In this document: one piece after another, positions 3,150-54,439 of the stretch
Position numbering within the stretch: the stretch's first letter is position 1
How the letters are laid out: the number at the start of each line of letters is the position of its first letter
IMG/VR virus record: IMGVR_UViG_3300025674_000054
Location: 1 to 54,439 of that record
Length of the DNA: 54,439 nucleotides
Source of the DNA: a virus
Lineage: Duplodnaviria; Caudoviricetes
Reading direction: 5' to 3' (one strand)
The notes under the pieces: model-generated
Told to the model about the DNA's origin: nothing
The model's input: the letters and a program-made list of their open reading frames with translations, nothing else
Databases searched by the model: none
Translations under genes and position numbers: made by a program

Positions 3150-3160
3150 ATATTTATAAT
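3150..3160 (+). promoter_or_regulatory. putative late promoter ATATTTATAAT
   Basis: Motif recurs just upstream of 11 gene starts, many structural. Confidence 0.7.
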
Positions 3161-3527: not shown

Positions 3528-3544
3528 AATCTCCTGCGTACTTA

Positions 3545-3577
3545 TTTGGCTACCCAGGAGATCGTTCGTATATTTAG
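3545..3577 (+). promoter_or_regulatory. early/host-sigma-type promoter
   Basis: TTTGGCTACCCAGG...TTCGTATATTTAG with conserved spacing. Confidence 0.8.
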
Positions 3578-3608
3578 CCATAGTTAAAAAGTTAAAATAA
3601 TAAAGGTT

Positions 3609-3953: not shown

Positions 3954-3970
3954 AAGTAATACACAGGTAG

Positions 3971-4002
3971 CTTGGCTCCCCAGGCTACCTTTCGTATATT
4001 TA
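3971..4002 (+). promoter_or_regulatory. early/host-sigma-type promoter
   Basis: CTTGGCTCCCCAGG...TTCGTATATTTA with conserved spacing. Confidence 0.8.
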
Positions 4003-4029
4003 TCCAGTATTAATTATTAAAATAAAGTT

Positions 4030-5956: not shown

Positions 5957-5958
5957 AA

Positions 5959-6138
5959 ATGTCGAAAGAAGAACAAAGAGCGGAATTAATTAATGATTTA
6001 ATTGCTGTTAATACAGTAATGGAAGAATTATGGAACTACCACCCAGATAATCCAGATAAAAAAGATGTAGTTACCGAATATAATACACTTCAGAATATTC
6101 AAAAGGATATTGAAAAAGAAATTGAGGAACTTAGTTAG
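5959..6138 (+). CDS. small hypothetical protein, 59 aa
   Basis: Manually translated MSKEEQRAELINDL...WNYHPDNPD...EIEELS; fills the gap before the tRNA. Confidence 0.7.
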   Translation: MSKEEQRAELINDLIAVNTVMEELWNYHPDNPDKKDVVTEYNTLQNIQKDIEKEIEELS

Positions 6139-6144
6139 TAAATT

Positions 6145-6229
6145 ACCTTGGTGGCGGAATTGGTAGACGCGCCGGACTTAAAATCCTGTGGGCTGAAAGC
6201 TCGTGTGGGTTCGATTCCCACCCAAGGTA
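6145..6229 (+). tRNA. trnL: tRNA-Leu, anticodon UAA (CCA not encoded)
   Basis: Acceptor stem ACCTTGG/CCAAGGT, D-arm GGCGGAATTGGTAGACGC, anticodon loop CTTAAAA, long variable arm, T-loop TTCGATT, discriminator A. Confidence 0.95.
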
Positions 6230-6230
6230 C

Positions 6231-6241
6231 ATATGTATAAT
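6231..6241 (+). promoter_or_regulatory. putative late promoter variant ATATGTATAAT
   Basis: One mismatch to the consensus, 11 nt upstream of the ATG at 6253. Confidence 0.5.
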
Positions 6242-6252
6242 TAAACGTTATT

Positions 6253-7019: not shown

Positions 7020-7025
7020 AAATTC

Positions 7026-7057
7026 CGTGACTTATTCCTTTTTTTCTCGTATATTTA
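7026..7057 (+). promoter_or_regulatory. early/host-sigma-type promoter
   Basis: CGTGA-N15-CTCGTATATTTA with conserved spacing. Confidence 0.65.
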
Positions 7058-7142
7058 TACCACGGGGTTTAGGAAAAAAGGGGGATAGATAAAGGATGTA
7101 AAATAGGGGGTAAAAATACCTCGGTTATAAATAAATAAAAAT

Positions 7143-41300: not shown

Positions 41301-41548
41301 ATTATACTGGTGCAGCTAATCATCCGACAGGAAGTGGAATTGGTATCGTAGCCCAAGAAATACAAAGTATCTTCCCAGAAACAATTCATAACTTTTCAGC
41401 TAAACTAAATGAAAATGATGAAGAAGAAACTACAGATTTATTAGGTTTCCAACAAGATCCACTTTTATATGCTGCTATTAACTCAATAAAAGAATTAAAT
41501 ACTAAAATAGAACAACTAGAACAACGTATCCAGGAACTAGAAGGATAA
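29336..41548 (+). CDS. giant tail fibre, 4070 aa, with Gly-X-Ser triplet tracts, repeated spacer domains, Cys/GG-rich heads and a C-terminal peptidase S74 chaperone
   Basis: (GTS/GSS)n tracts; SDERLKTNI autocleavage motif at about 41219; GIVAQE and terminal coiled coil. Confidence 0.9.
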   Translation: MAKQLENIFDPNVDEISQGFTINSWHVSQSVDAFTAQDAYDISISGSFNNTGSAGFSGSVFTPDLPDTTADFEVVVVDNTSKELKKTNLLNAGSSGTSGSSGTSGSSGTSGSSGTSGSSGTSGSSGNSGSSGTSGADGDRYATTSGTSETLGDGNQCITVETGLAYTAGQEMIMANSDTALQTALVVSYDSVTGILCYGAIILQIGSGTYSSWQVNLSGNVAGSSGTSGSSGTSGTSGSSGQQGDPGTSGSSGTSGSSGTSGSSGTSGSSGESDKYATTSGTSFTLGGNGTITVETDLAYTPAQSIIIVYDVNNFQECEVITYNSSTGELVFGSPTRTVGSGTYSTWTVNLDGASGGDGSSGTSGSSGTSGSSGTAGTSGSSGTSGTSGSSGVSGSSGSSGTSGSSGTSGSSGTSGSSGSSGTSGSSGNSGTSGSSGTSGSSGDSGTSGSSGTSGTSGTSGTSGTSGSSGTSGSSGTSGSSGTSGTDGTSGSSGTSGTSGSSGTSGTSGTSGTSGSSGTSGSSGEDGTSGSSGTSGSSGTSGTSGTSGSSGTSGTSGSSGTSGSSGSSGTSGTSGTSGSSGTSGTSGTSGTSGSSGTSGTSGSSGTSGTSGTSGTSGTSGSSGSSGTSGNSGTSGSSGNSGTSGSSGTSGSSGTSGTSGSSGTSGTSGTSGTSGSSGEDGTSGSSGTSGSSGTSDKYATTSGTSFTLGNSGTITVETGLAYTTAQSIIIVYDIDNFQECEVTSYNSATGELSFDSPTRTVGSGTYSTWEVNLDGASGGDGSSGTSGTSGTSGSSGTSGTSGTSGSSGTSGTSGSSGTSGTSGTSGSSGNSGTSGSSGTSGTSGTSGTSGTSGTSGSSGTSGTSGSSGTSGTSGTSGSSGNSGTSGSSGTSGSSGNSGTSGSSGTSGTSGTSGTSGSSGTSGSSGEDGTSGSSGTSGSSGTSGSSGTNGTSGTSGSSGTSGTSGSSGTSGTSGTSGSSGTSGTSGSSGTSGTDGTSGTSGTSGSSGTSGSSGTSGTNGTDGTSGSSGNSGTSGSSGTSGSSGDSGTSGSSGTSGTDGTSGSSGTSGTDGTSGSSGTSGTSGTSGSSGTSGTSGTSGSSGTSGTSGTSGSSGTSGTDGTSGSSGTSGTSGTSGSSGTSGQDGTSGSSGTSGTSGTSGTSGSSGTSDKYRTTSTTSFTLGNSGTLTVDVGLAYTPAQSIIIVYDVDNFQECEVITYNDATGALAFDTPTRTVGSGTYTSWTVNLDGASGGDGSSGTSGSSGTSGTSGTSGSSGTSGSSGTSGTSGTSGSSGTSGTSGSSGTSGTSGSSGESGTSGTSGTSGTSGTSGSSGTSGSSGVSGTSGSSGTSGTDGTSGTDGTSGSSGTSGTSGTSGSSGTSGTSGTSGSSGTSGTDGTSGSSGTSGTSGTSGSSGTSGTSGTSGSSGASGPIGPYEYNIPGDEDSGIHPVSGSNTAAGCWSTIAGGENNYVGLGGTKYHFIGGGCDNTVGTCAAGQVIVGGYCNYSQGSVSANKSDWNFIGAGIENCNIGGVAAIVAGRNNKIEGTGLGAAYTGASGSFIGAGANNCIIAACCSTIVGGKSNVNCGDHSFIGSGLENSISNNVSGGPHVLVGGSCNKLVSYATAFLGGGSNNTIEVSANQTSGNVLVGGNSNKITGSCQAYMFIGGGASNVISGSDSVCYSSIVGGRGNILKETERSFIGGGQENTSSADYTFIGGGYQNRVLGICSTIVGGRNNIITSGCNFIGGGLINCICTSTTSVIVGGIYNEIQGSHSGGFVGSGNCNTILGSTNSGHAIVTGTCNRVSNQNTGGGHNFIGTGCHNLASGCADIIVGGFHNTASANFAFIAGGCDNCVTHQHSVILGSEITSVSDCTTHVNQLNIGTVSTGTENDVLIIASDGTVKKKTAAATSGTSGTSGSSGTSGTSGSSGTGGTSGSSGNSGTSGSSGTSGTSGTSGTSGSSGNSGTSGSSGTSGTSGTDGTSGSSGTSGTSGTSGSSGTSGTDGTSGSSGTSGTSGTSGTDGTSGSSGTSGSSGTSGSSGTSGTSGSSGTSGTSGTSGTSGSSGTSGTSGTSGSSGSSDKYATTSGTSFTLGNSGTITVEAGLAYTPAQSIIIVYDTSNFQECEVITYNDSTGVLEFDSPTRTVGSGTYSVWTVNLDGASGGDGSSGTSGTSGTSGSSGTSGTSGTSGSSGTSGTSGTSGSSGTSGTSGTSGSSGSSGTSGTSGTSGSSGDSGTSGSSGTSGTSGTDGTSGSSGTSGTSGSSGTSGTSGTSGSSGNSGTSGSSGTSGTDGTSGTSGSSGNSGTSGSSGTSGTDGTSGTSGTSGTDGTSGSSGTSGTSGSSGTSGTSGTSGTSGSSGNSGTSGSSGTSGTNGTSGTSGTSGTSGSSGASGPIGPYEYNTPASTTSGIQPVSGSNTASGCMSNIGGGENNTSGGACSVIGGGRQNVNCSNLSFVGGGARHTLGSDVTQDVYSVIVGGLCNCAFDFYNFIGGGNKNFISSSVGETGTANVVVGGQCNRIGGAYSFIGGGICNFLTGSRGIIVGGSTNKSVCFANDDFVIVGGFSNENCADYTFIGGGCCNIANHNHAFILGSDITSVSACTTHVNQLNIGTVNTGTENDVLIIASDGTVKKKTAAASSGSSGTSGTSGTSGTSGTSGTSGSSGNSGTSGSSGTSGTSGTSGTSGSSGNSGTSGSSGTSGTSGTSGTSGSSGTSGTSGSSGTSGTSGTSGTSGTSGSSGTSGTSGSSGTSDKYRTTSTTSFTLGNSGTITVETGLAYSPAQSIIIVYDVDNFQECEVTTYNSGTGALSFDNPTRTEGSGTYTSWTVNLDGASGGDGSSGTSGTSGSSGTSGTSGTSGTNGTSGSSGTSGTSGSSGTSGTSGTSGTSGTSGSSGNSGTSGSSGTSGTSGTSGTSGSSGNSGTSGSSGTSGTNGTDGTSGSSGTSGTSGSSGTSGTSGSSGTSGTSGTSGTSGTSGTSGSSGVSGTSGSSGTSGTSGTNGTSGSSGVSGTSGSSGTSGTSGTSGTSGTSGTSGSSGTSGTSGSSGTSGTSGTSGTSGTSGTSGSSGNSGTSGSSGTSGSSGNSGTSGSSGTSGTSGTSGTSGTSGTSGAATINNNADHRVITGDNTAGVLNAESCFTFGPSYRVTIGQGHTNSNSTWAAVLSGCGNQVCMPAAVIGGGLDNCIQNLSGAGCIDVIGGGQNNKICGWKSNTISGGCNNTIANYNTGTFNYQLGHTIGGGYNNDISGSGGNEFASTIAGGNDNCIFGSSTGAIGGGAGNDIIGGSANTIAGGCFSRIIGSVYYTTIAGGNCNCISVSSNYASIGGGTCNCIISSHFGAIGGGYDNELNGGQCAVIGGGYNNCIKSNEGFIGGGRLNCIVSSVCSVIGGGYTNCISTYSFSTILGGCDNFVGGCLSFIGGGHGNNITLASSGTVIAGGIGNTVDGCMTNTIGGGCQNCIDGEQYGSHNTIPGGALNCIIGNCSEAYSTIGGGLCNTICVGDSNVIAGGRQNKTSGECSVIGGGYLNTGSCSFSFIGGGCSNFNARECATLVGGHNNCMNGIASFIGGGDTNCVTYCSAFTNIVGGAHNTASDAACYSSIVGGCKNSINRADYSAIVGGCLNFISGSNGNLADFSTIISGKENLVGGCYAVAGGEFSQALGNQAIAYGYAVSASGGASAAFGALSKAIGDNSFATGRSGSAGGCDSFVGGFGNDIDADAPQAVAFGYENIIASTGDNSVVFGSSNCIGGANNFVQGTNNDSFCDHNVIIGGCNHRISNVGGSTRATLSAIIGGINNCITCADSNFIGAGAGNLINRGCNSIIAGGNNKICIDTLTQGYSAVFGICNVTNGDGSYSFMAGGYGNNFGAYSAVIGVGSVGSKGDVQIALGCGITTPTGATAARGDSQIVVGKFNDYTTSCIHRFAVGNGTSDTSRTTKFAVIGGGTSNGQVAVNSSNGCSSYNFFVNGSAAKPFGGSWTNSSDERLKTNIQNYTKSLSDIIQVQPRTFDYTGAANHPTGSGIGIVAQEIQSIFPETIHNFSAKLNENDEEETTDLLGFQQDPLLYAAINSIKELNTKIEQLEQRIQELEG
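29609..38618 (+). repeat. degenerate 9-bp tandem repeats encoding Ser-Gly-Thr/Ser-Gly-Ser, interrupted by globular modules
   Basis: Units such as TCAGGTACA, AGTGGTTCA, TCTGGAACT with mixed synonymous codons. Confidence 0.95.
29750..37807 (+). repeat. six copies of an ~85-aa spacer module (DKYxTTS...TVxxGLAYTPAQSIIIVYD...NLDGASGGDG)
   Basis: Copies start near 29750 (divergent), 30152, 31415, 32822, 35543, 37547. Confidence 0.9.
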
Positions 41549-43387: not shown

Positions 43388-44836
43388 ATGCAATCAAACG
43401 ATTTAATCTATAGGCAAAAACAAGAAGCCCATAAATATACATCTACTAACCAATATCCTCCTTTTAAGTGGCAAGTAGATTCTAATCACATGGAAACTAA
43501 AAATGGTATCCCTCAGGGAAATATCCGTTATAGTTTTTATGATGATGATAATAATCTAAAATATGAAGGTGATATTCGCATAATTGAATGTGAAGATGGT
43601 TTAGTTAGACAAGATATTGATTTTAAATTAGTAGATGGTCAATATGAAGATGTAGTAAATTCTTTTAACATTTATAGGTTATACTCTACTCAAATAGCTA
43701 TTGGTTATTGGGTTTGTGATAATTACCAACATATTAATATTATTTGTTTAAGAGGTTATGGTGAAAAAGCTGATATTAGAGCCAGGTTAGCAGCTCGTTA
43801 CTGGAAGAAAATCTTAGGTATAGATGCAACCCCAGGTAAATTTTTAGGTGAAGATGTTTTAGAGGTTAAATTTAATATGCCCGAACCTTATTTTTATCCT
43901 ACAGATGATATTCCTATACTTCAAGAAATAAAAGCTAACTTTCCCCAAATAAAAAAAGAAATATTAGAAATGATAGAGGCAATTAATTGGGAAGATTTTC
44001 CTAAATATGAAGCCCAATATCATCCTAAATATGGGGGTTCATTATATGAAAATGATTGGAAAGTAATACCTTTAAGTTCTTTTAAAGGTATTTATGGTGT
44101 AGAAAAATATGCAAAAGGAGAAGCTGAAAAATTATTTCAAAAAGTAAAAAAATTAATCCCAACTTATAGAAGTATAATTAAAAAAGGTGAAAAAGAAGGA
44201 TGGATTGCCAATTCATTTTTATCAAAGCTTGTTCCCGGGAGTATTATCAATCCTCATAAATCATGGACAGAAGATTACCTCAGAGCCCATATTTGCATTA
44301 CAGAAGATAAAGATTGTATTATTTCAAAATTTCACCCTGATACCCCAGAAATTAAAGAATCCCGAACTTGGAAAGAAGGTGAATTACTTGCGTTTCATGA
44401 TGGGGGTAATTATTTGCATGCTGTAAAACATAAAGGTAAAAAACCAAGAATTATTATATCTTTAGATTTAAAAATAGACCATATATTTGATGGGCATTAC
44501 TTAAAATATGCTAATTTACCTATCCGCCCCTCTAAATTTAAGTTTACAACTACTATTATTAAAGGAGTTCAAATTGATTCTATTATAGGTTTACCTTCTG
44601 CCAATCTTAAAGAACAACCTGATTTAAGATGTGGTATTTATACTGTTGATACTAATTTTGGAAAAGGGGTTTTAAATAATTATGATATTAAATCTACTGT
44701 TCATATATTAGACTTTGATAAAGAAATCTATGGGGAAAAAATTACAATTACAAACCCCCAACTAATTGATAAAAAACATAAATTTGCAAATCCATTATTT
44801 GATTTTTATAATGAGTTTTGTGATAAATGTGAATAA
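43388..44836 (+). CDS. fusion: unknown N-terminal domain + Asp/Asn beta-hydroxylase-like oxygenase + degenerate riboflavin-kinase-like domain
   Basis: WKVIPL, SKLVPGSIINPH, LRAH, WKEGELLAF....YLHAV...PRIIISLD; C-terminal GLPSANL, GIY, VHILDFDKEIYGEKI. Confidence 0.75.
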   Translation: MQSNDLIYRQKQEAHKYTSTNQYPPFKWQVDSNHMETKNGIPQGNIRYSFYDDDNNLKYEGDIRIIECEDGLVRQDIDFKLVDGQYEDVVNSFNIYRLYSTQIAIGYWVCDNYQHINIICLRGYGEKADIRARLAARYWKKILGIDATPGKFLGEDVLEVKFNMPEPYFYPTDDIPILQEIKANFPQIKKEILEMIEAINWEDFPKYEAQYHPKYGGSLYENDWKVIPLSSFKGIYGVEKYAKGEAEKLFQKVKKLIPTYRSIIKKGEKEGWIANSFLSKLVPGSIINPHKSWTEDYLRAHICITEDKDCIISKFHPDTPEIKESRTWKEGELLAFHDGGNYLHAVKHKGKKPRIIISLDLKIDHIFDGHYLKYANLPIRPSKFKFTTTIIKGVQIDSIIGLPSANLKEQPDLRCGIYTVDTNFGKGVLNNYDIKSTVHILDFDKEIYGEKITITNPQLIDKKHKFANPLFDFYNEFCDKCE

Positions 44837-45766
44837 ATGGTAAACCAATTATTAGTAACATTAGTTAATTCTGTATTAGGATCAGGCAAGGCAACTGCTA
44901 GAAACAACTACGCATACCATTGTCCCTTTTGCCATCACCATAAACCTAAATTAGAGGTTAATTTAACAGAAAACCGTGAAGGGAAAAACCCTTGGCATTG
45001 TTGGGCTTGTGATGCTAGAGGTACTACTATATATAATTTATTTAAACAACTTAAAGTAGAAGCTAAAAAATTTAGTGAACTCAAATCATTAGTTAAAACT
45101 TCTAAATCCATAAAAGAAACACAAGTTGTTAGTAGTGTTACATTACCTAATGAATATATTAGTTTATATAACGGTGATAATAGCGGGATAATGGCTAGGC
45201 ACGCGCTGGCATACTTAAAAAAGAGAAACATCAGTAAACACGATATACTCAAATATAATATAGGGTATTGTAAAGAAGGGTTATATAAAAATATGATTAT
45301 ATTACCGACTTACAATAAAGACGGAAATATAAATTATTATATCGCCCGCTCATTTGAAAAAGAACCATATATAAAATATCGTAACCCACCAGCAAGTAGA
45401 GATATAATTCCAAATGAACATTTAATTAATTGGAATATACCAATTATATTATGTGAAGGAATGTTTGATGCAATTGCTATTAAACGAAATGCAATACCAT
45501 TATTAGGAAAAAATATTCAAAGTAACTTAATGAAAAAAATAGTTACTTCTGTAGTAGATAAAATTTACATTGCGTTAGATAGGGATGCAATTAAACAAGC
45601 TTTAAAATTCTGTGAAAGATTAATGGCGGAAGGAAAAGAAGTCTATCTTGTAGATTTACAAGATAAGGACCCGAGTGAAATGGGTTTTAAAAATTTCACT
45701 AGACTTATACAAAAAACAGTTCCACTAACCTATTCTAATCTATTGGAACAAAAACTAGCTTTATGA
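44837..45766 (+). CDS. dnaG: DNA primase (zinc finger + TOPRIM)
   Basis: CPFC...HCWAC, LCEGMFDAI, ALDRDA, KDPSE. Confidence 0.9.
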   Translation: MVNQLLVTLVNSVLGSGKATARNNYAYHCPFCHHHKPKLEVNLTENREGKNPWHCWACDARGTTIYNLFKQLKVEAKKFSELKSLVKTSKSIKETQVVSSVTLPNEYISLYNGDNSGIMARHALAYLKKRNISKHDILKYNIGYCKEGLYKNMIILPTYNKDGNINYYIARSFEKEPYIKYRNPPASRDIIPNEHLINWNIPIILCEGMFDAIAIKRNAIPLLGKNIQSNLMKKIVTSVVDKIYIALDRDAIKQALKFCERLMAEGKEVYLVDLQDKDPSEMGFKNFTRLIQKTVPLTYSNLLEQKLAL

Positions 45767-46530
45767 TCAAAAAATCATATGATAGAATACTAGAGGTCTC
45801 AAATGACCACAAACAAATAACTCTACCAGATTCACGTTACTATAGACGTAATGGAGAGTATTATCCATCTATAACTTATGTTCTAAATTGTTATCCTAAA
45901 GGCAAACATTTTCAAGATTGGCTTAAAAAAGTAGGTTATAGCGCAGATTGGATTGTTAAAAAGGCATCTGAAGAAGGTACAGCAGTACATGAATTAATAG
46001 AAGAATATTTCGAAGGTAAAGAAATGAATTTTCTAAACGATTATGGTAATCCTAAAATGAATCCTGAAATATGGAGAATGTTTTTACGTTTTGTAGATTT
46101 TTGGGAAACATATAAACCTACATTGATAGAAACAGAAGTACATTTATTTAGTGAAGAACTTAAAGTAGCAGGTACTTGTGATTTGATTTGTGAAATTGAT
46201 GGTGTGTTATGGGTTATCGATTTTAAGACAAGTAATCATCTCCAAACAACTTATGATTTACAAGGTGCTGCCTATGCTCAATGTTATAAAGAATGTTTTG
46301 GTAAAGAAGCTGAACGTATAGGGGTATTATGGTTAAAATCAAAATCTAGAGGAAAAGATAAATCCGGAGTTAGATTAAAGGGTAAAAACTGGGAGATTTA
46401 TGAATCACCAAGATCCCAAGAAGAAAATCTTGACATATTTAAATCAGTAAAAAGAATTTTTGATCTAGAAAATCCAAAACATAAACCAGCTACTACTTCA
46501 TTTCAAACAACAGTGAAAAGAACAGTTTGA
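45763..46530 (+). CDS. PD-(D/E)XK exonuclease (RecB-family nuclease domain)
   Basis: YPSITYVL, GTAVHELIE, AGTCDLI, VIDFKTS, QGAAYA. Confidence 0.88.
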   Translation: MIKKSYDRILEVSNDHKQITLPDSRYYRRNGEYYPSITYVLNCYPKGKHFQDWLKKVGYSADWIVKKASEEGTAVHELIEEYFEGKEMNFLNDYGNPKMNPEIWRMFLRFVDFWETYKPTLIETEVHLFSEELKVAGTCDLICEIDGVLWVIDFKTSNHLQTTYDLQGAAYAQCYKECFGKEAERIGVLWLKSKSRGKDKSGVRLKGKNWEIYESPRSQEENLDIFKSVKRIFDLENPKHKPATTSFQTTVKRTV

Positions 46531-46540
46531 TATTTATAAT
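46530..46540 (+). promoter_or_regulatory. putative late promoter ATATTTATAAT
   Basis: Exact motif 3 nt upstream of the ATG at 46544. Confidence 0.6.
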
Positions 46541-46543
46541 AAA

Positions 46544-46918
46544 ATGGAACCTAATCAAATTCAAAAAATTGCAAACAAAGTATACCCTAAAATTAGGGCT
46601 CACTATGGTTTAGGTAAAAAAGAATATCCACAAATTGAAGTTCACAAAAATATTTTAGTTAGATTAACAGGCGAACCAGAAGCTGAAGGTGAACCTGCTG
46701 ATGCTGAATTTGATAGAAAAGAAAATAAGTTATTCCTATATTCAGATTATAATGATAGTGTTGAAGATGTAATTAGGGGAATTATACATGAATATATACA
46801 TTATTTACAATCTGGATCTTGGATGAAAAGATACTACAATATGGGTTATACTTATGGCAATCACCCATATGAAATTGATGCTCAAAAAGCTGAGGAAGAT
46901 TGGAAGAAATTCGTGTAA
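46544..46918 (+). CDS. zincin-like metallopeptidase domain protein
   Basis: IIHEYIHYLQ (HExxH) and downstream HPYEIDA. Confidence 0.8.
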   Translation: MEPNQIQKIANKVYPKIRAHYGLGKKEYPQIEVHKNILVRLTGEPEAEGEPADAEFDRKENKLFLYSDYNDSVEDVIRGIIHEYIHYLQSGSWMKRYYNMGYTYGNHPYEIDAQKAEEDWKKFV

Positions 46919-46921
46919 AAA

Positions 46922-46953
46922 TTTGGCTACCCAAGTAACCTTTCGTATATTTA
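46922..46953 (+). promoter_or_regulatory. early/host-sigma-type promoter
   Basis: TTTGGCTACCCAAG...TTCGTATATTTA, nearly identical to the copy at 3545. Confidence 0.8.
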
Positions 46954-46982
46954 CCCTGTAAATGAGTAAAAAAATAAAGGTT

Positions 46983-47249
46983 ATGTCAATTTTAAGTAAA
47001 AAAATCAAAAATTTAAAAGAAGGAGATAAATTCATCTTTACCTATGGTGATAAAGATTATGAATTTTATTGTCATTCATATTCAGAAAATTTTGGTCCTA
47101 GTTTCTCAATCCATGAAGCTGGTAGTTTTTTAGGTAGATCAATGAATGTTGATAAAGTTACTAAAAAGTATATCACATTATATGATTATAATTTATTTTC
47201 AGTTAGATCATCATTTAAAATTCCAATTAACTCAATAGAGATTAAGTAA
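46983..47249 (+). CDS. hypothetical protein
   Basis: ORF track start 46962; ATG at 46983 preferred for its AAAGGTTATG context. Confidence 0.7.
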   Translation: MSILSKKIKNLKEGDKFIFTYGDKDYEFYCHSYSENFGPSFSIHEAGSFLGRSMNVDKVTKKYITLYDYNLFSVRSSFKIPINSIEIK

Positions 47250-47716
47250 TGAAAAAAATAGTTTATCTTCACGGTTTAGAAAGCAAAGCAGGTGGTCCTA
47301 AGGTTGATTTCCTTGCTACTAAAGGTATGGTTTATGCCCCTGAGATGGATTATGAAACATTAGATTTAGAAGAGTTAATGGGTAAAATTGGTAAACCTGA
47401 TATAATTATAGGTTCTAGTATGGGTGGTTATATTGCCGATATATTAGGATCTCAATTGGGAGTAGATGTTTTACTGTTTAACCCTGCTTTGCATAGTAGA
47501 AGTATTGAGTTTGATTTTGATGGTGGAACTGGTTATGGAAATAAAAATTATAAACGTACTATTATTTTAGGTACTGAAGATGATGTTATAAATCCTGAAG
47601 TGACCAAAAAACTATGGCCAGTTTATGATAATTCTGCTAAATTTGAGGAAATAGAGGGCATGGGTCATAGAACGTCACTTGATGTGTTTGTTAATATGTA
47701 TAATAAACATGCTTAA
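47249..47716 (+). CDS. alpha/beta hydrolase, YqiA/UPF0227-like esterase
   Basis: YLHGLES, GSSMGG nucleophile elbow, LFNPAL, EDDVI, MGHR. Confidence 0.88.
   Translation: MKKIVYLHGLESKAGGPKVDFLATKGMVYAPEMDYETLDLEELMGKIGKPDIIIGSSMGGYIADILGSQLGVDVLLFNPALHSRSIEFDFDGGTGYGNKNYKRTIILGTEDDVINPEVTKKLWPVYDNSAKFEEIEGMGHRTSLDVFVNMYNKHA
47694..47704 (+). promoter_or_regulatory. putative late promoter variant ATATGTATAAT
   Basis: Embedded in the 3' end of the esterase gene, upstream of the ATG at 47719. Confidence 0.55.
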
Positions 47717-47718
47717 TT

Positions 47719-48252
47719 ATGATCAAGTTAGTAGATCTTCTTAATGAAATAGATATACCTAAGAATGAATGGAAACCTATTTCTAAAGATGAATTAAAGG
47801 GTATTGAAAAACAAATTCTAGATTTAATTAATACAGCTTATGGACCTATTGGTGGTCATCCTAACTATAAATCTGTAGATGATTTAGTAGGTTCTGAATA
47901 TCAAGTAATCGATTTAGATAGTGATCCTGAATTAGATGCTGTTACAGTAACTAAACAAAGATCAGGAGGTACAAAACATGTTGGAATAGGTCATGATAAT
48001 TCAAGCCCAGCTAAAAGAGCAACTATAACTCGTACAATTGATAAATTAGATGAACCTGGAAATTATATAGAAGCATCAGGTGCTATTGAAGGTATCTTAC
48101 GTAAAGCAGGAGTAGTACAAGTTACAGATGAAGAAACTATTCGTAAAGCTTTAAAAGGCAAAGAAATAGAAATGCATAGTGATGGTTCTTACGATAGAAT
48201 CTTAGGTGGTAAAAAATATAAAAAAACAATGTTTGGAATTCCAAGAGTATGA
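47719..48252 (+). CDS. hypothetical protein with MIKLVDLLNE leader
   Basis: Clean ORF; leader resembles that of the next gene. Confidence 0.75.
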   Translation: MIKLVDLLNEIDIPKNEWKPISKDELKGIEKQILDLINTAYGPIGGHPNYKSVDDLVGSEYQVIDLDSDPELDAVTVTKQRSGGTKHVGIGHDNSSPAKRATITRTIDKLDEPGNYIEASGAIEGILRKAGVVQVTDEETIRKALKGKEIEMHSDGSYDRILGGKKYKKTMFGIPRV

Positions 48253-49049
48253 TAAGTTTAATGCAATTATTAAAAGAAGCACAAGGCGAACCTAAAGCCA
48301 TTATATTAGCAGGAGCACCTGGAGCAGGTAAGGGGTTTATCTTACGTGGTCTAGATTTAGGAGGTTTAAAAGTATTAAATGTAGATAATATTTTTATTGA
48401 AAAATTAAAACAGGCTAATGTCAGTTTGGATTTAAAAAATGCTACACCTGAAGAAAGAAGTGAGCAAGCAAAACAAATGGCGGCAGCTAATAAAGAGTTT
48501 AAAGGTGAATTACAAAATGTAATAGATGGTAAACAATCATTTATATTAGATGGAACGGCAGCTTCAGTTAAAACAACAACTAAATTAAAGGATGAATTAG
48601 AAGAAGCGGGATATGATGTATTTATGCTTTATGTTTATACTGATTTAGAACGTTCACTAATGCAAAATCAAGATAGATTTGAAAAATCAGGTGGTGAAGA
48701 TAGAAGTTTAGCACCTGCTATTGTAATGCGTACTTGGCTATCAGTAACTAAAAATTGGGCACCTTATAAAGAAATGTTTGGTAATAATTTTGTTTCCGTA
48801 GCTAATACATTAGAAGATGAAAAATTAAAAGATGTTGCTGATGTAATTAAAAAATATTTAGACCCATTTAAACCAACAGGAACTAAACCTAAAACAGCAG
48901 CTCAACAAGCTAGAAGTGATAAACAAAAGGCTGAAACAAATGCCCAAATACAAGCTTTATTAAGTGATGATGGAGCTAAAGAAATTATAGATGGTTCTGT
49001 ATCTAAAGAAGAAGCACAATCTAAAATTAAACAATTTTTATCTAAATGA
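48249..49049 (+). CDS. P-loop kinase (zeta-toxin/AAA_33-like) with MISLMQLLKE leader
   Basis: ILAGAPGAGKG Walker A, FILDGT Walker B, LEEAGYDVFMLYV. Confidence 0.8.
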   Translation: MISLMQLLKEAQGEPKAIILAGAPGAGKGFILRGLDLGGLKVLNVDNIFIEKLKQANVSLDLKNATPEERSEQAKQMAAANKEFKGELQNVIDGKQSFILDGTAASVKTTTKLKDELEEAGYDVFMLYVYTDLERSLMQNQDRFEKSGGEDRSLAPAIVMRTWLSVTKNWAPYKEMFGNNFVSVANTLEDEKLKDVADVIKKYLDPFKPTGTKPKTAAQQARSDKQKAETNAQIQALLSDDGAKEIIDGSVSKEEAQSKIKQFLSK

Positions 49050-51940
49050 GTTTAGTAAATGAGTTAGTAAAAGGGTTATTACCTGAAGAAGAAAAAAAGG
49101 TAGTAGCAGTATATGGAGGTGGTTTTAAACCACCAACTAAAGGTCATTTTGAAGTTGTAAAACAAGCAATTAAAGAAAATCCTAATATTGATGAGTTTGT
49201 TATTAACATAGGTGGTAAAGCTAGAGATGGTGTTACACCTGAAGAATCAATTCAAATTTGGGATATCTACAAACAATACCTCCCAGTTTCAGCTAACATT
49301 AATATCCAATATAGTAGTACTCCTCCTATAAAGGCAACTTATGATTATGCTAAAAACCACCCTGATGAAGAAGTATTATTTATTTTAGGTGCTAGAGAAG
49401 GTAATGAAGATGATTTTAAAGATATATCTTCTAGAACTAAATCTTTAGATAAATATCCTAATTTAAATTTACGTACTATAGTAACCAAAGGAGGTGTATC
49501 TGGTACAGCGGCTAGAAATGCTGGTAAAATAAGCAAAGAAAAAATAAGACCATTCCTACCAGATGAATTAAAAGACGAAGAAGTAGAAGAAATTTACCAA
49601 ATGGTATCTGATAAAGTAACTGAAAATATAAGTGAAAGTAAACAGGTTGGTACTTTATATCATTATACATCAGCTAATGGATTAAAGGGTATACTTCAAT
49701 CTAATAGTATTAAAGCTTCTGAGGAATACTATTTGGGTAATGATTTATATTTTGTATCTTTTACTAGAAATAAAAATTTCCATAAAAAAGGTTCAGCATT
49801 TGATGTTTCAATGGATTATAGAATTGCATTAGATGGTAATAAATTATCTAATAAATATAAAATTACACCTTTTGCTTATATACCTGGATGGAATTACAAA
49901 GACAATTGGGAATATGATTGGTTAGATGACGAGCCAGAAAGTGTGGTAAGGGATTTTTTAAATGCTTCTGGAGATTATGATGAACAAGAAGAAAGAATAA
50001 ATTTTAAAAAACCAGGTAGTTCAATAACTAATATAAAAGATTATATTTTAAAAATAGATAAGGTATCTGAATTAACTGAAGGTAGAAAAAAGAAAAAAGA
50101 TCCTAAAAAAGGTACAGGTAAAAAACCAGAAGGTTCAGGACGTAGATTATACACAGATGAGGATCCAAAAGATACAGTTGGTATTAAATTTAGTACTAGA
50201 CAAGATATAGTAGATACTTTAAATAAAAAATCATTTAAAGCTAAATCACATGCTAGACAATCTCAAATTATTAATTTAATTCATCAAAGAACTAGAGCAG
50301 CTTATAACAGAGCTAAAGATCCTAAAGTTAAAAAACGTTTAAAAACAGCTTTAGACTATATTACTAAACGTAAAGAAGCATCTAAAAAGAAAACACAACG
50401 TTTGAAAAATTTAAAAGAAAATGCTACCTATTCTCAACACATAGACATAATTGAAAAAATAGCTGAATTAACTAACTATATGATAGAAAGTGGTTTAAAT
50501 ATTGAACCACTACCTAGTATGGAATTTATAGATGGGGATACAGAAAATGCTAAAGATTTTTTCGGTAAAACAGCATATTACGATCCCAATAAACAACATA
50601 TTGTTTTATATACTGAAGGTAGACATCCTAAGGATATATTACGTTCATATGCACATGAAATGATACATCATATCCAGTATTTAGAAGATAGATTACATAA
50701 CATCACTACTACAAATACTAATGAAGATGAAGATTTAGATGCTATTGAAAAAGAAGCATATGTAAGAGGTAATATGACATTTAGAAATTGGACAGATTCA
50801 ATTACAGGTGATAAGTTAGAAGAAAATTTAAACAATCCTAATTTAACAAAGCAATTAAAAAATTATATAGAGGATTACACAGATATTAATATAAATTTAT
50901 TAAAAGACCTACTTAAAATAAAAAATAAATATCCTAAACAATTAGACCCTAGAGTTGGAGGTAATAAATTTGGATATAGAGGTACTACATTTAGTAAAGA
51001 GTTTATAGATAAATTAAAAGTGAAATCTAAGGTTAATGGAGTAACAGAATATGAAGTTCCTCCTAATTTAAAAATTAATTCAAGAGGAAAAAGAGGTTTT
51101 TTAAGTTTTTCAACAGATGAAGAAGTAGCAAAGGGATTTGGACACTATTCAGGATATGTAGATTATAAAAAATCAGATGATAGAGTAGGGGGATATGTAA
51201 AAGTATCTTTAGATAATCCTAACTTTATTATCCATCCAGATTATATGGGAGAACTTTCTAAAGATATGGAATATTCTAAAGATAATGAAAAAGAAACTTT
51301 ATATGTAGGTAATTCTTTTACACCCGAAAGTATATTTGTTATTGATAAAGATATATATGATACTTTAACAGAAGGTAAGAAAAAAGATCCATTTGGTTTA
51401 TTAGCATATGCTCAAGAATTAGGTCGTTTAAGAGAGGAAGAAAGCGAGTATAAAGTTTATTTAGATATGGATGGTGTATTAGCTGATTTTGATCAACGTT
51501 TTAGAGATATATCTGGAATGGAACCTAAAGATTTTGAAAATAAATATGGTACAAAAGAATTTTGGAATCTTATAGACGAAGAAAATAAAATTAAATTTTG
51601 GGTTGGTATCCCCGTAATGTCAGGTGCTGCTGATTTAGTAGATGCTGTTAAAGATTATAATTATGAATTATTAACATCACCATCATCTAAAAAGCAATCT
51701 TATTTAGGAAAAATACTTTGGGTAAAAAATCATACAGGTGACGTGTTTCCCTCAAAACCTCGTATTAACTTTAAGAAAGCAAAAGAGAAACACCTTGTTA
51801 AACCACAGCTAGCAAAAACAGATATTCTAATAGATGATAGAGAAGATACTATTGGAAGGTGGAATGCATCAGGTGGTACTGGTATAGTGTATAAAAGTAT
51901 AGGTCAGGTATTAGGTGATCTAAAAAAATTAGGTTTATGA
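49046..51940 (+). CDS. multidomain polyprotein-like ORF: HxGH nucleotidyltransferase, ART-like, basic domain, zincin, ART-like, HAD nucleotidase
   Basis: GGFKPPTKGH..VSGT; LYHYT/VSFTR/EQEE; RRLYTDEDPK; AHEMIHH; YRG/SFST/EKE; YLDMDGVLADF..LIDDR. Confidence 0.8.
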   Translation: MSLVNELVKGLLPEEEKKVVAVYGGGFKPPTKGHFEVVKQAIKENPNIDEFVINIGGKARDGVTPEESIQIWDIYKQYLPVSANINIQYSSTPPIKATYDYAKNHPDEEVLFILGAREGNEDDFKDISSRTKSLDKYPNLNLRTIVTKGGVSGTAARNAGKISKEKIRPFLPDELKDEEVEEIYQMVSDKVTENISESKQVGTLYHYTSANGLKGILQSNSIKASEEYYLGNDLYFVSFTRNKNFHKKGSAFDVSMDYRIALDGNKLSNKYKITPFAYIPGWNYKDNWEYDWLDDEPESVVRDFLNASGDYDEQEERINFKKPGSSITNIKDYILKIDKVSELTEGRKKKKDPKKGTGKKPEGSGRRLYTDEDPKDTVGIKFSTRQDIVDTLNKKSFKAKSHARQSQIINLIHQRTRAAYNRAKDPKVKKRLKTALDYITKRKEASKKKTQRLKNLKENATYSQHIDIIEKIAELTNYMIESGLNIEPLPSMEFIDGDTENAKDFFGKTAYYDPNKQHIVLYTEGRHPKDILRSYAHEMIHHIQYLEDRLHNITTTNTNEDEDLDAIEKEAYVRGNMTFRNWTDSITGDKLEENLNNPNLTKQLKNYIEDYTDININLLKDLLKIKNKYPKQLDPRVGGNKFGYRGTTFSKEFIDKLKVKSKVNGVTEYEVPPNLKINSRGKRGFLSFSTDEEVAKGFGHYSGYVDYKKSDDRVGGYVKVSLDNPNFIIHPDYMGELSKDMEYSKDNEKETLYVGNSFTPESIFVIDKDIYDTLTEGKKKDPFGLLAYAQELGRLREEESEYKVYLDMDGVLADFDQRFRDISGMEPKDFENKYGTKEFWNLIDEENKIKFWVGIPVMSGAADLVDAVKDYNYELLTSPSSKKQSYLGKILWVKNHTGDVFPSKPRINFKKAKEKHLVKPQLAKTDILIDDREDTIGRWNASGGTGIVYKSIGQVLGDLKKLGL

Positions 51941-52512
51941 GCAAAGATAATGTCTTAAAAAAGCAATTTCAAGAAAAAGATGTACAACGTTTACGTAATT
52001 TAATAACTGGTAAACATGGTGCTAAAACACGTTCTAGTGTTGGTTTCTCTAAAGCAGATGAATTTTATGCCGAAGGTGACATTTGGGAAGCAGATGGCCG
52101 TACTTGGACTATCAAAGATGGTATTAAACAAAATATAACAAAGCTAGATAAAGCTAAAAAAGCACATATTATGCCTTTACTTTGCCCTAAATGTAGCAAA
52201 GTAATGAAAAAACGAAACGATAAACCTGCTTACAATTTACATAAAATGTGTTTTGATTGTGTTGCTAAAATGGAACATCAAATTAGATTAGATGGTAAAT
52301 GGGAAGATTATACTAATAAGCTTCATAATCAGCAAATTGACCATAATTTAGAAGAATTTAAAGCTTTTATAGAAGAAAAATTGGTAGAATCAAATAATTC
52401 ATTTGTATCAGAAGATGGAGATGTTGAAAAGTGGGTAGGTAAACTAGATAAAGAAAAAGTAAAAGAATATGTAGATTCAGTAGTTGAATATGCTAATTCA
52501 CTTAAAAAGTAG
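51937..52512 (+). CDS. hypothetical zinc-finger protein
   Basis: CPKC...CFDC; EGDIWEADGRTWTIKDGIKQ. Confidence 0.75.
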   Translation: MSKDNVLKKQFQEKDVQRLRNLITGKHGAKTRSSVGFSKADEFYAEGDIWEADGRTWTIKDGIKQNITKLDKAKKAHIMPLLCPKCSKVMKKRNDKPAYNLHKMCFDCVAKMEHQIRLDGKWEDYTNKLHNQQIDHNLEEFKAFIEEKLVESNNSFVSEDGDVEKWVGKLDKEKVKEYVDSVVEYANSLKK

Positions 52513-52518
52513 CTTTAT

Positions 52519-52529
52519 ATATTTATAAT
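52519..52529 (+). promoter_or_regulatory. putative late promoter ATATTTATAAT
   Basis: Exact motif upstream of the ATG at 52542. Confidence 0.7.
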
Positions 52530-52541
52530 AAACACTCTATT

Positions 52542-53807
52542 ATGAAAGATAATTTTGACCTTTATTCATGGAATAAAAATCGCTATTTGGGGAAAGCTCA
52601 TGTAGCTAAAGAAACTAAAGACGAAAATTTCGATTTACATGAATGGAATAAAAAACGTTATTTAGGTGAATTGGATATTAATACCACTGGTGGTGATACT
52701 GATGTTGATAACCTAAATATAGATAAAGGTGGAGATGATGCTAAAATGGGAGCGGAATTAGAATCAGATGCTAATGTAGTAGGAGAAAACCAATCTCATT
52801 TAGAGTTTTTACAAAAGTATTTATCAAAAATGCACCCTGAATTAAGGTGGGAAATTAGTTTTGGAGAAAGGCTTGATGCATACGGCTCAGCCCAAGACTT
52901 AGCAAATTTTGGAAATAAATATCATGGTAAAAAATTTGGTGACTATGAAGTATTTCATGTAGATGATGATGATAGATTAGATATTGTTCGTGTTATTAAA
53001 TCTTCTAAATTAAGAGAAAATAAATCTTACCATACAGAAGAACATGCTAGATTTTTAACAGCATTGAGAGACTCAGGTGTTACTAATATGTTTGGTGCTG
53101 GTCCTTATTTAGCAGCAGAATTTGATTTAGACCAAAGAGAAGCTAGAAAAATATTAGCTAGTTGGATGGAATCATTTTCAGAAAATTTAAATGAAAGTTA
53201 TATGTACAAAGGATATAAAGACAAACATTTTGATATTTGTCCAACAGCTGAGGCTTTAAGAGATAGATTATTAGCAGGTGAATTTAAAGATACTAGTTGG
53301 GCTACAGGAACTGATTTTGAGAAAGAAGTAGGTGAGTGGCTTTACCAACATGATATTTTATTTGGTACTGAAAAACAAATATTAAAAGATAAAGAAGGGG
53401 ATGAAAATGATTTAGAAGTAGCAGAACAAGCTGTAGATAGAATTGTAAATTTATCTCGTGATTTAGGTATTCCTGCTAGTGAAATAAATGCTTATATTCC
53501 TGCTCATATTAAAAAAATTAAGGATATAGTTGAATATAGTTCATTAACTGAAAGCATTAAAGAAACAATTCGTTTTATCAAAGAAAACAACCCAGAATTT
53601 ACCAATGAAGAGATTAAAGCTGAATTAAAAGAAATTAAAGCATTAGGTGAGCAATTAGATGAATCTATGTGTAAAAGAGGAAAAAATTATATGGCTGCTA
53701 GAAAAAGAGCAGGCGAAAAATCCTCAGCTTACTTATCAGGTCGCGGTGTTAAAGTATGTAAAGGTCAGATTAAAGGAGCTGATGGTAAAAAGAAAAAATC
53801 ATATTAA
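52542..53807 (+). CDS. multi-segment hypothetical protein with duplicated N-terminal motif and L-x-E linkers
   Basis: NFDLxxWNKxRYLG twice; LRE, LNE, LTE, LDE junctions; basic C-terminal domain. Confidence 0.75.
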   Translation: MKDNFDLYSWNKNRYLGKAHVAKETKDENFDLHEWNKKRYLGELDINTTGGDTDVDNLNIDKGGDDAKMGAELESDANVVGENQSHLEFLQKYLSKMHPELRWEISFGERLDAYGSAQDLANFGNKYHGKKFGDYEVFHVDDDDRLDIVRVIKSSKLRENKSYHTEEHARFLTALRDSGVTNMFGAGPYLAAEFDLDQREARKILASWMESFSENLNESYMYKGYKDKHFDICPTAEALRDRLLAGEFKDTSWATGTDFEKEVGEWLYQHDILFGTEKQILKDKEGDENDLEVAEQAVDRIVNLSRDLGIPASEINAYIPAHIKKIKDIVEYSSLTESIKETIRFIKENNPEFTNEEIKAELKEIKALGEQLDESMCKRGKNYMAARKRAGEKSSAYLSGRGVKVCKGQIKGADGKKKKSY

Positions 53808-54079
53808 TGATTCCAAATTACGAAGAAATATTACGTGAATCTTTAAAAGATTGGTTTGGCAAAGAAGATTGGGTCCGAATTAACACTTCAGGTAATATAG
53901 CTGGTAAATGTGGTACAATGAAAAAAGGCAAAGCTACAACAAGATGTTTGCCTAGAAAAAAAGCACAATCACTTACAAAGGCAGAGCGTAAAGCAACTGT
54001 AGCTAAGAAAGTACGTGGTAGTAAAAAAGGCAAACAGTTTGTGAAAAACACAGATAAAGCCGAATTTAAAAAGAAATAA
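53807..54079 (+). CDS. small basic protein (DUF5872-like) with ILRE leader
   Basis: SLKDWFGKEDWV...CG...RCLPRKKAQSLTKAER; Lys/Arg-rich. Confidence 0.7.
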   Translation: MIPNYEEILRESLKDWFGKEDWVRINTSGNIAGKCGTMKKGKATTRCLPRKKAQSLTKAERKATVAKKVRGSKKGKQFVKNTDKAEFKKK

Positions 54080-54439
54080 ATGAAATTTATATATTCATTA
54101 TTAATACTACTTCTTACTAGTTGTGGTGTCCAATGGCAATACACAACCTTAAATCACGCTGCTCAAGTAGATTCTATCTATAGTTCCCCAAATATTCAAA
54201 TTGATACTATCAATTCAGCATCAGATTTAAGATGGAAATTAAGAACCGATTTTAATTTTAGATATGATTTTGCACAATATGCAATGCAACAACCTTATTC
54301 TTGGTATTGGAATAATCCAAGATTAGAAGGTATTTGGAGACCATATAATAGATTTGATGTATATTTTTATAGTAATTGGTTTTGGAATGATTGGGCATTT
54401 AATTATCCATTTCATCATACTTGGGGCTGGAATAATTGG
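54080..54439 (+). CDS. lipoprotein, partial (runs off the window end)
   Basis: Manually translated MKFIYSLLILLLTSCGVQWQY...; lipobox LTSC; Trp/Tyr/Asn-rich; open to the end of the window. Confidence 0.75.
   Translation, partial: MKFIYSLLILLLTSCGVQWQYTTLNHAAQVDSIYSSPNIQIDTINSASDLRWKLRTDFNFRYDFAQYAMQQPYSWYWNNPRLEGIWRPYNRFDVYFYSNWFWNDWAFNYPFHHTWGWNNW

Follow-up and report, generated by a model that had tools for sequence, protein, structure and literature searches.

Can a phage pack several different enzymes into its capsid as a single chain and separate them with its head protease? This question is raised by a gene in the IMG/VR virus record IMGVR_UViG_3300025674_000054 (Duplodnaviria; Caudoviricetes), of which the window analysed here is the whole stretch of 54,439 nucleotides (a 54-kb phage-genome fragment, for which record data of the IMG/VR type give 34% completeness). 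The gene, an open reading frame (ORF) at 49046..51940 on the + strand, had been described in an initial annotation as a six-domain effector polyprotein with an (L/I/V)-x-E site at every domain boundary, and it is confirmed here as real, encoding 964 amino acids (aa) without interruption (964 open codons). Judging from its sequence and from those of its relatives, there is about an even chance that it encodes a polyvalent cargo polyprotein, from an aquatic, marine myophage related to T4, which would be loaded in the capsid and cut by the head protease.

In the mechanism that we favour, the chain would enter the prohead core, possibly by means of a 14-residue N-terminal leader, and the head protease would cleave it behind the glutamates of the joints between modules, yielding separate enzymes and short basic peptides. 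These products would be ejected with the DNA and would act on the NAD+ and nucleotide pools and on the proteins of the host, ahead of phage gene expression. The case for packaging and cleavage is built on the match of the joints to a protease motif, on leader peptides and on promoter-like motifs.

Modules and joints of the polyprotein

The chain consists of six modules, named A to F: a PPAT/NMNAT-like nucleotidyltransferase, an ADP-ribosyltransferase (ART) of the HYD1 type, a basic helical module, a zincin, an R-S-E-type ART-like module and an NT5C-type HAD nucleotidase. This division, first proposed from short motifs, is independently backed by the homologs, in that the ends of whole-protein BLAST alignments pile up at residues 193/194, 341-345, 453-455, 586-595 and 765-773. 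The motifs themselves are all at the positions claimed for them (TKGH 31-34, SGTAAR 152-157, HYT 206-208, SFT 238-240, EQEE 313-316, HEMIH 537-541, YRG 644-646, SFST 687-690, EKE 748-750 and DMDGV 807-811).

Each of the five joints carries at least one site of the expected type (slashes mark the putative cuts; all coordinates are on the + strand). Joint 1 (residues 191-197, VTE/NISE/; 49616..49636) coincides with the alignment-end peak at 193/194; the homologs have dk[ILV]xE here, and the predicted local distance difference test score (pLDDT) of the AlphaFold 2 (AF2) model is below 50 from residue 190. Joint 2 (residues 340-345, VSE/LTE/, followed by G346; 50063..50080) falls on the alignment ends at 341-345, and joint 3 (residues 456-458, LKE/, followed by N459; 50411..50419) in a stretch with pLDDT below 50 (451-465). 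Joints 4 (residues 591-593, LEE/, followed by N594; 50816..50824) and 5 (residues 774-776, LTE/, followed by G777; 51365..51373) go with the alignment ends at 586-595 and 765-773, respectively. One more site, LRE/E at residues 795-798, is in place as claimed between a mini-module and module F. The glutamate of joint 3, E458, is invariant in a 73-sequence alignment (A1), and at least 90% of the same sequences retain that of joint 5, E776.

The claim that such sites mark every boundary therefore stands: all five homology breakpoints have an [LIV]-x-E within 5 residues, a proximity with p = 9e-5 under random placement and p = 7e-4 under shuffling of 40-residue blocks, which keeps the local composition. 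In total the polyprotein has an unremarkable 17 sites, 14.9 being expected from its composition. Their distribution, which had been suggested as a check, is uneven: 10 sites fall in the 72 residues of linkers and leader and 7 in the 892 residues of module interiors, an about 18-fold higher density in the former. The whole-protein AF2 model places joints in low-confidence stretches (190-197, 451-465, 588 onward and 764-799), which are probably flexible, and models B and E poorly.

The grammar of the joints is clearest in the family as a whole, for which we tabulated the contexts before each module start in 194 distinct proteins (counts are of distinct contexts). At the start of module D, P1 is Glu in 74/74 contexts and P3 is aliphatic (L/V/I) in 73/74, P2 takes six different residues and P1' is N in 68. 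At the start of module C, P1 is Glu in 37/37 and P3 is L/I/V in 37/37, with nine residues at P2 and G at P1' in 36. A zinc ribbon found in some relatives begins in the same way (P1 Glu and aliphatic P3, both 23/23), as does module E (P1 Glu in 5/5 contexts). Modules end in aliphatic-x-Glu throughout, the next one opening with G or N. Fixed P1 and P3 positions around a free P2 fit selection on a recognition site, unlike shared linker ancestry. An unbiased test over the whole family points in the same direction, a site ending at most 4 residues from 381/756 alignment breakpoints, compared with 603/4534 positions shifted by 20-40 residues; the test is noisy, and only half of the breakpoints have a nearby site, because many alignments stop inside modules, where divergence makes the similarity drop off.

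Double sites with short spacers, such as those of joints 1 and 2, are common in the family, and so are mini-modules bounded by two sites. The mini-module of the present protein (residues 777-797, GKKKDPFGLLAYAQELGRLRE; 51374..51436, +) ends with LRE/E and sits before F in nearly all homologs. At locus L049, which has F in an ORF of its own, this piece remains on the upstream ORF and F begins just behind it. Mini-modules with two Glu sites recur between larger modules in homologs P0019, P0014, P0018 and others, and are of several kinds: a peptide of about 20 residues with DGKAAPYGSGY, a four-Cys zinc ribbon of about 40 residues (C.KC..W .. CHKCGH) and a 21-residue KKKDPFGL..A.EL before the nucleotidase.

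Module exchange among relatives

A search of a metagenome protein collection with the polyprotein (P0001 as query, P0005 where the window's own protein is listed among the homologs) gave 3988 matches among 7998 scored candidates, and the six modules were mapped on the best 120. Among these 120, eleven architectures were found: A-C-D-F in 91, A-D-E-F in 13, A-B-C-D-F in 7, A-B-D-F in 2, and seven singletons. The window's own protein is the only one of them with all six modules together. Within a single homolog the identities to the window's protein may differ from module to module (in P0010, 66% for A, 96% for D, 100% for E and 94% for F), which shows recombination between modules. The domains had been predicted to be exchangeable between linkers, and this comparison of orthologs bears the prediction out, the number of architectures and the independent module identities showing that the architecture is not fixed. 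Modules are gained, lost and reordered at the joints.

The repertoire extends beyond the six modules, as 48 longer inserts carry extra ones (GIY-YIG, with E 4.7e-24, DUF5661, a zinc ribbon, a weakly RegB-like module and more of the HYD1 type). Forms of 553-1279 aa are encoded at 79 viral loci, some with F split off into its own ORF, and eight longer forms (1692-2067 aa) add NUDIX, PAP2 and Hint domains. The family thus has a conserved core, made of a PPAT/NMNAT-like adenylyltransferase, a small zincin and an NT5C-type nucleotidase, and accessory modules that vary by phage: here, two ART-like modules and the basic helical one, and elsewhere GIY-YIG, Nudix, PAP2, zinc ribbon, RegB/BECR-like modules and others.

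Among 50,697 phage records, Flavobacterium phage immuto (vB_FspM_immuto, grown on Flavobacterium sp. LMO8) is the only cultured relative, and its polyprotein is gp088. Its locus is syntenic, with a primase, an exonuclease, a 302-aa protein, a 907-aa multi-domain protein containing A and D, and a separate nucleotidase gene. At the nucleotide level, megablast of window positions 44000-54439 gave no match to cultured phages.

Head protease and leaders

The initial annotation had noted that T4-type prohead proteases cut after (I/L)-x-E, and a protease of this type is indeed encoded by the phage lineage: Peptidase_S77 is above cut-off in immuto (E 6.9e-36) and in 5/5 related viral records (two of them complete), that is, in all six relatives searched. 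In T4, gp21 cleaves after L/I-x-E, as set out in section 2.5 of PMC9026906. The sites GLLE/G and MILE/N, with the same P1' residues as the joints, are common to the major capsid proteins of immuto and of the complete related genome G001, in their N-terminal regions.

The N-terminal leader of the polyprotein (residues 1-14, MSLVNELVKGLLPE; 49046..49087, +) contains V-N-E at 4-6 and L-P-E at 12-14. A 14-residue leader ending in L-P-E is kept at the N-terminus of most homologs, and 17-22 residues precede the first strand of A in 53/65 locus-encoded ones. The leader is separable from A, as it stays N-terminal when a module of about 110 aa sits between them (P0069/73/88 and P0080/113/119). Similar sites are found near the start of most distant relatives of module E: among 54 of these, which mostly stand alone, an aliphatic-x-Glu ends at residues 8-13 in 47 cases and exactly at residue 10 in 23; in a control set of 189 ORFs, 29 have a site ending at 8-13 and 6 exactly at 10. 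The stand-alone relatives P0141-P0193 (about 240-295 aa) share the consensus M-I-K-L-K-x-L-L-K-E, followed by (F/I/L)-(E/D)-(Y/F)-G.

Short peptides of this kind also occur next to the polyprotein gene. The two genes directly upstream of it encode an uncharacterized 177-aa protein (47719-48252, +) and a Zeta_toxin-family P-loop kinase (48249-49049, +; Pfam E 1.6e-18), and their products open with peptides of 10 residues, MIKLVDLLNE and MISLMQLLKE, that end in L-x-E. From these N-termini, both proteins may be further leader-tagged cargo. A Zeta_toxin-family kinase is found upstream of the polyprotein in many related loci. When the 189 ORFs of G001 were scanned for this leader, the best match was a 345-aa ORF located between the ORFs taken, by position and length and with no family search, as portal and protease. 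Additionally, G001 120112-121278 and L089 23578-24660 (immuto gp071) lie directly upstream of the prohead protease and start with MKTLQE.. and MRTLQE.., respectively, with several more aliphatic-x-Glu in the first 60 residues; these two are likely, by sequence and position, to be prohead core or internal proteins with leaders.

Predicted nature of the modules

Module A (residues 15-190; 49088..49615, +) has the signature of HIGH-type nucleotidyltransferases (PPAT/NMNAT-like), whose (H/T)xGH and ISxTxxR-like motifs on a Rossmann-like fold are represented here by TKGH and SGTAAR. The Pfam family CTP_transf_like scores 14.3 bits in P0001, against a cut-off of 21, and passes it with 33.7 bits in the relative P0129. 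The AF2 model of this module has a pLDDT of about 80-90, and Foldseek comparisons of it give TMt values of 0.70-0.76 for PPAT chains vs 0.56-0.61 for NaMN adenylyltransferases, so that the modelled fold is closer to the former.

Module F (residues 798-964 plus stop; 51437..51940, +), at the other end of the chain, is a 5'(3')-deoxyribonucleotidase-like member of the HAD superfamily, with DMDGV as its DxDxV nucleophile motif. It matches PHROG 2643 (E 1.9e-24), reaches 16.3 bits for Pfam NT5C (cut-off 24.8), is modelled with a pLDDT of about 90, and resembles the human and mouse deoxyribonucleotidases (cdN/mdN) in Foldseek (TMt about 0.55). In phage immuto and at loci L035, L036, L046 and L049, F is a gene of its own. 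A comparison of the whole polyprotein with PDB sequences gave marginal HAD and PPAT matches (E 0.06-0.45).

Module D (residues 459-590; 50420..50815, +) is the most conserved module (35 invariant columns) and is present in all of the best 120 homologs. Residues H537, E538 and H541 of the HEMIH motif, together with E568/E570, are invariant or nearly invariant across the alignment. Modelled alone with AF2, D reaches a pLDDT of 85.5, and the VIA-align comparison returns Wss1 (5xbn, Z 8.0, 103 aligned residues, 3.9 A), PprI/IrrE (7.6) and SPRTN (7.0), other rows being nearly all zincins; the Foldseek result is weak, with IrrE as best match (E 0.014), and the profile of D against PDB sequences found chance DARPin matches and nothing else. 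The model of D has the fold of a small zincin metallopeptidase, with HExxH and a third-ligand Glu, and its peptidase activity is putative. This Wss1/IrrE/SprT-like fold suggests compatibility with an MPTase-like domain, short of proof of membership.

The two ART-like modules are less firmly placed. Module B (residues 198-339; 49637..50062, +), of the H-Y-[D/E] type (Tox-ART-HYD1), scores 22.8 bits in P0001 for PF15633, under the cut-off of 25, and the family is above cut-off in relatives (30.3 bits for the orthologous module of P0009, 31.6 bits for a related module of P0128). Counting the window's own protein (P0005), B was mapped in 14 of the best 120 homologs, and its search against phages gave weak matches to hypothetical phage proteins (best E 1e-3). 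Module E (residues 594-773; 50825..51364, +) has the YRG, SFST and EKE motifs in the order expected of the R-S-E type, to which T4 Alt, C3-like toxins and DraT belong, and in an ESM Atlas model it resembles PF01129 ART and DraT clusters, as a lead (TM 0.51-0.57). No Pfam family was matched by E in P0001 or in 54 relatives (0/54: P0139 and P0141-P0193), and tblastn of E against the 50,697 phage records gave no match. In the whole-protein AF2 model, B and E are both below pLDDT 50, and so this model supplies no fold evidence for either ART. The term ART-like is for module E a well-founded lead, suggested by motif order and by the atlas model, rather than an established membership.

The remaining module, C (residues 346-455; 50081..50410, +), is rich in Lys and Arg (33% K+R, pI 10.7) and has no assigned family. 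It is predicted by AF2 to consist of a disordered basic head and two long helices (385-452), and it is the commonest accessory module, being part of the commonest architecture.

Gene neighbourhood and promoter-like motifs

Baseplate-wedge genes are found in the window, as are a primase gene, an exonuclease gene and one for a collagen-like tail fibre of 4070 aa. The polyprotein ORF overlaps its upstream neighbour by 4 bases, and thus belongs to a co-directional gene string (46544-51940). At the head of this string there is a 124-aa HExxH ORF (46544-46918, +), D-like and standing alone, which is probably a paralog of zincin module D to judge from its similarity to it (blastp E 0.001; hhalign probability 66%, E 5.7e-5). 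In a blastp of ten neighbouring ORFs against the 120 homologs no match was found, so these neighbours are not seen as modules of homologs.

Directly before the 124-aa ORF, and 2.5 kb upstream of the polyprotein, lies a late-type promoter-like motif, TATTTATAATAAA (46531..46543, +). The same word is present on the + strand of the window at 3151, 9097, 12248, 25438, 25457, 29318, 41556, 46531 and 52520, at 13-22 nt before start codons (the first motif of the tandem pair 25438/25457 is 39 nt away); one gene of the baseplate cluster and that of the tail fibre are among those so preceded. The immuto genes that follow it encode the tail sheath, the tail tube and the tail spike, and one more belongs to the head cluster. 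The motif is conserved in immuto and in five related records, a reversed control giving 0 matches in the six. From this distribution, TATTTATAATAAA is probably the late promoter of the lineage; it is found at most 3 kb upstream of the polyprotein in 31/48 non-redundant loci, which suggests that the polyprotein is expressed late. The classic T4 late promoter, TATAAATA, was considered for the window and rejected, as its 20 matches, against 15.8 expected, are no enrichment, and the intergenic signal is the other + strand word, TATTTATAATAAA.

A second promoter-like motif, TTGGCTACCC..CGTATATTTA (46919..46961, +), stands just before ORF 46962 and is nearer to the polyprotein than TATTTATAATAAA. 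Motifs of this type (TTGGCT.CCC .. CGTATATTTA) are intergenic in the window, at 3528-3608, 3954-4029, 7020-7070 and 46919-46961 (all +), and sometimes overlap a hairpin. In immuto, CGTATATTTAGGTAT, of the CGTATATTTA type, precedes small early-looking genes at 63-76 kb, and this second type is possibly an early, host-type promoter. With such a motif nearer to the gene, late expression of the polyprotein is no more than suggested.

Three further features of the window were noted. It has two giant ORFs, one of 2957 aa without PHROG match (16549-25422, +) and that of the 4070-aa tail fibre (29336-41548, +); G+C is 39-43% inside the latter (2-kb windows, 30001-40000) vs about 30% elsewhere; and a tRNA-Leu gene (anticodon taa) is located at 6145-6230 (+), in the intergenic gap 5957-6252.

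Alternative explanations

Several observations weigh against capsid loading and cleavage by the head protease. The window's own record, a 34%-complete fragment that does not reach the head genes, has no match to Peptidase_S77, and our literature search found no virion proteome of immuto or of its relatives. The polyprotein gene adjoins the primase and exonuclease genes, outside the head cluster; the early-looking second motif is closer to it than the late-type one; and TATTTATAATAAA stands directly before the kinase-polyprotein pair in only 21/48 loci. The leader is missing in 12/65 locus-encoded homologs, which start directly at the fold (that of the complete genome G001 included), and a leader profile scan of the immuto ORFs gave mixed top matches, with no clear head-gene enrichment. 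The depletion of sites in module interiors is weak (7 sites against 12.1 expected, P = 0.055), the G or N behind a terminal helix may be a plain helix cap, and the zincin embedded in every listed homolog may itself be the cutter.

These points lend themselves to other explanations. It is rather unlikely, in our view, that no cutting takes place and that one multi-enzyme chain is made in infection (for instance for NAD+ or nucleotide metabolism), with the joints as flexible, recombination-tolerant linkers at helix ends. The position of the gene beside replication-type neighbours (primase and exonuclease) and the early look of the nearest upstream motif would agree with such a chain, and so would the site total that matches composition (17 vs 14.9) and the several joints that end predicted terminal helices, for which G/N is a common cap. 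That F is fused in some phages and a gene of its own in others may be read in the same sense, and shows that modules also work unfused. Nevertheless, capping and flexibility leave the P1 Glu, the aliphatic P3 and the free P2 unexplained (with P1 fixed in 74/74, 37/37 and 23/23 contexts), and they explain neither the double sites with short spacers, nor the separable leader, nor the residue-10 leaders on stand-alone relatives.

We consider it quite improbable that the cutting is done, in cis or in trans, by the chain's own zincin D or by the probable stand-alone paralog of D (46544-46918), whether before packaging or after host entry. This explanation would draw on the presence of D in all of the best 120 homologs as the most conserved module, on the invariance of E458 just before it, on its confident zincin fold model with HExxH and Glu, on the D-like ORF standing alone 2.5 kb upstream, and on the proposal, made in the relevant part of PMC5512222, that embedded metallopeptidases release polyvalent proteins. 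Modules A and F are equally universal, however, and universality therefore does not single out D. Zincins usually select mainly on P1', whereas it is P3 and P1 (Glu) that are conserved here, the documented grammar of T4-type serine prohead proteases. Moreover, stand-alone relatives of module E without D have the same site near residue 10, and the N-terminal region of the capsid protein carries the same site type. The joints could also be cut by the head protease and the products nevertheless serve in the head (as basic DNA-binding peptides or core components) or be degraded, rather than being directed to the host. Module C (pI 10.7) and the short K-rich peptides are indeed very basic, and the core proteins of T4 are cut to small peptides, most of which leave the head (PMC9026906, in its section 2.5). 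However, the modules look like enzymes, are strongly conserved and have kept their catalytic signatures, which argues for activity after release; we regard a role confined to the head, or mere degradation, as very improbable.

Significance

Capsid loading and cleavage by the head protease would, if it holds here, have a wider bearing. It is possible, though somewhat short of an even chance, that the joints and leaders reflect a general cargo grammar in T4-related aquatic phages, in which an N-terminal address peptide and head-protease joints would let any enzyme module join or be swapped. After capsid loading, the chain would be split into its individual enzymes for injection, and the protein would be a fast-evolving, pre-made payload for takeover and anti-defence (acting through NAD+ and nucleotides, protein ADP-ribosylation and proteolysis). 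If the head protease really cuts the joints, several changeable enzymes could be packed into the virion from one gene, and module shuffling would explain how a phage renews its first-minute weapons, the candidates for injection here being an adenylyltransferase, two types of ART, a zincin and a nucleotidase. The joints and leaders would, additionally, be natural protease-cleavable linkers and address tags, usable for protein delivery with capsids, and the cargo grammar a natural counterpart of engineered T4 leader-fusion delivery. The family is large, and a cultured relative, Flavobacterium phage immuto, is at hand.

Comparison with known systems

The initial annotation had presented the locus as a candidate for an undescribed system, which was an overstatement, as the protein fits a published class, the polyvalent proteins, for which peptidase release has already been proposed (PMC5512222, in the parts that deal with it). 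As described there by Iyer, Burroughs, Anand, de Souza and Aravind (2017), polyvalent proteins of phages and conjugative elements combine in one polypeptide many unrelated effector domains (ARTs, zincin metallopeptidase, nucleases, kinases and others) and are highly mosaic; the authors predict that they are delivered with the DNA and that peptidases release their domains, and expressly liken them to viral polyproteins. The present protein resembles them in having six modules of different folds or families in one 964-aa phage ORF, and in its mosaic relatives (11 architectures in the best 120, and forms of 553-2067 aa with GIY-YIG, NUDIX, PAP2, Hint and DUF5661). It differs in that the releasers proposed in those parts of the paper are embedded (MPTase, or C-terminal and assemblin-like), whereas here the joints bear the motif of a separately encoded T4-type protease, and in having an R-S-E-like ART module inside the chain. 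The Pfam models of the polyvalent class (MPTase-PolyVal, ART-PolyVal and LPD domains) gave no match to P0001 at E up to 1, and ART-PolyVal is weak in the longer relative P0126 (22.1 bits vs a cut-off of 31.2). A multi-enzyme chain with a head-protease motif at its joints in a T4-related phage is undescribed in the full-text literature searched and in the pertinent portions of PMC5512222, PMC9026906, PMC10052503 and PMC7824862, a scope outside which subscription journals lie.

In the giant phages phiKZ, 201phi2-1 and SPN3US, ejection and inner-body proteins are processed by prohead proteases, according to the corresponding passages of PMC10052503. Many of the proteins that these phages package undergo cleavage behind the Glu of a short motif, in some cases at more than one position in the same protein, which is the likeness to the joints described here. 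As far as those passages go, however, the cuts remove or fragment propeptides (13/14 sites are N-terminal in SPN3US) and release no series of enzymes, the motif context differs, and the phages are no close relatives.

By analogy, the closest mechanistic model is the leader and gp21 system of T4, in which the internal proteins IPI-III and Alt have a capsid-targeting leader and are processed by gp21, a Peptidase_S77 (PMC9026906, sections 2.3-2.6). Measured against those sections, the likeness extends to short leaders ending in L/I-x-Glu, to a T4-type protease encoded by the lineage, to cargo (putative here) that includes an ADP-ribosyltransferase or ART-like module and to the separability of leader and cargo. 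The differences are that the single proteins of T4 lose terminal propeptides, as those sections describe, whereas here the motif would part up to six or more enzymes of one chain, that modules are exchanged between phages at the sites, and that the leader has 14 residues and is absent from some relatives; cleavage is proposed here from the motif. If the head protease does cut the joints, the T4 picture of leader and protease, drawn for single proteins, would be extended to whole polyproteins.

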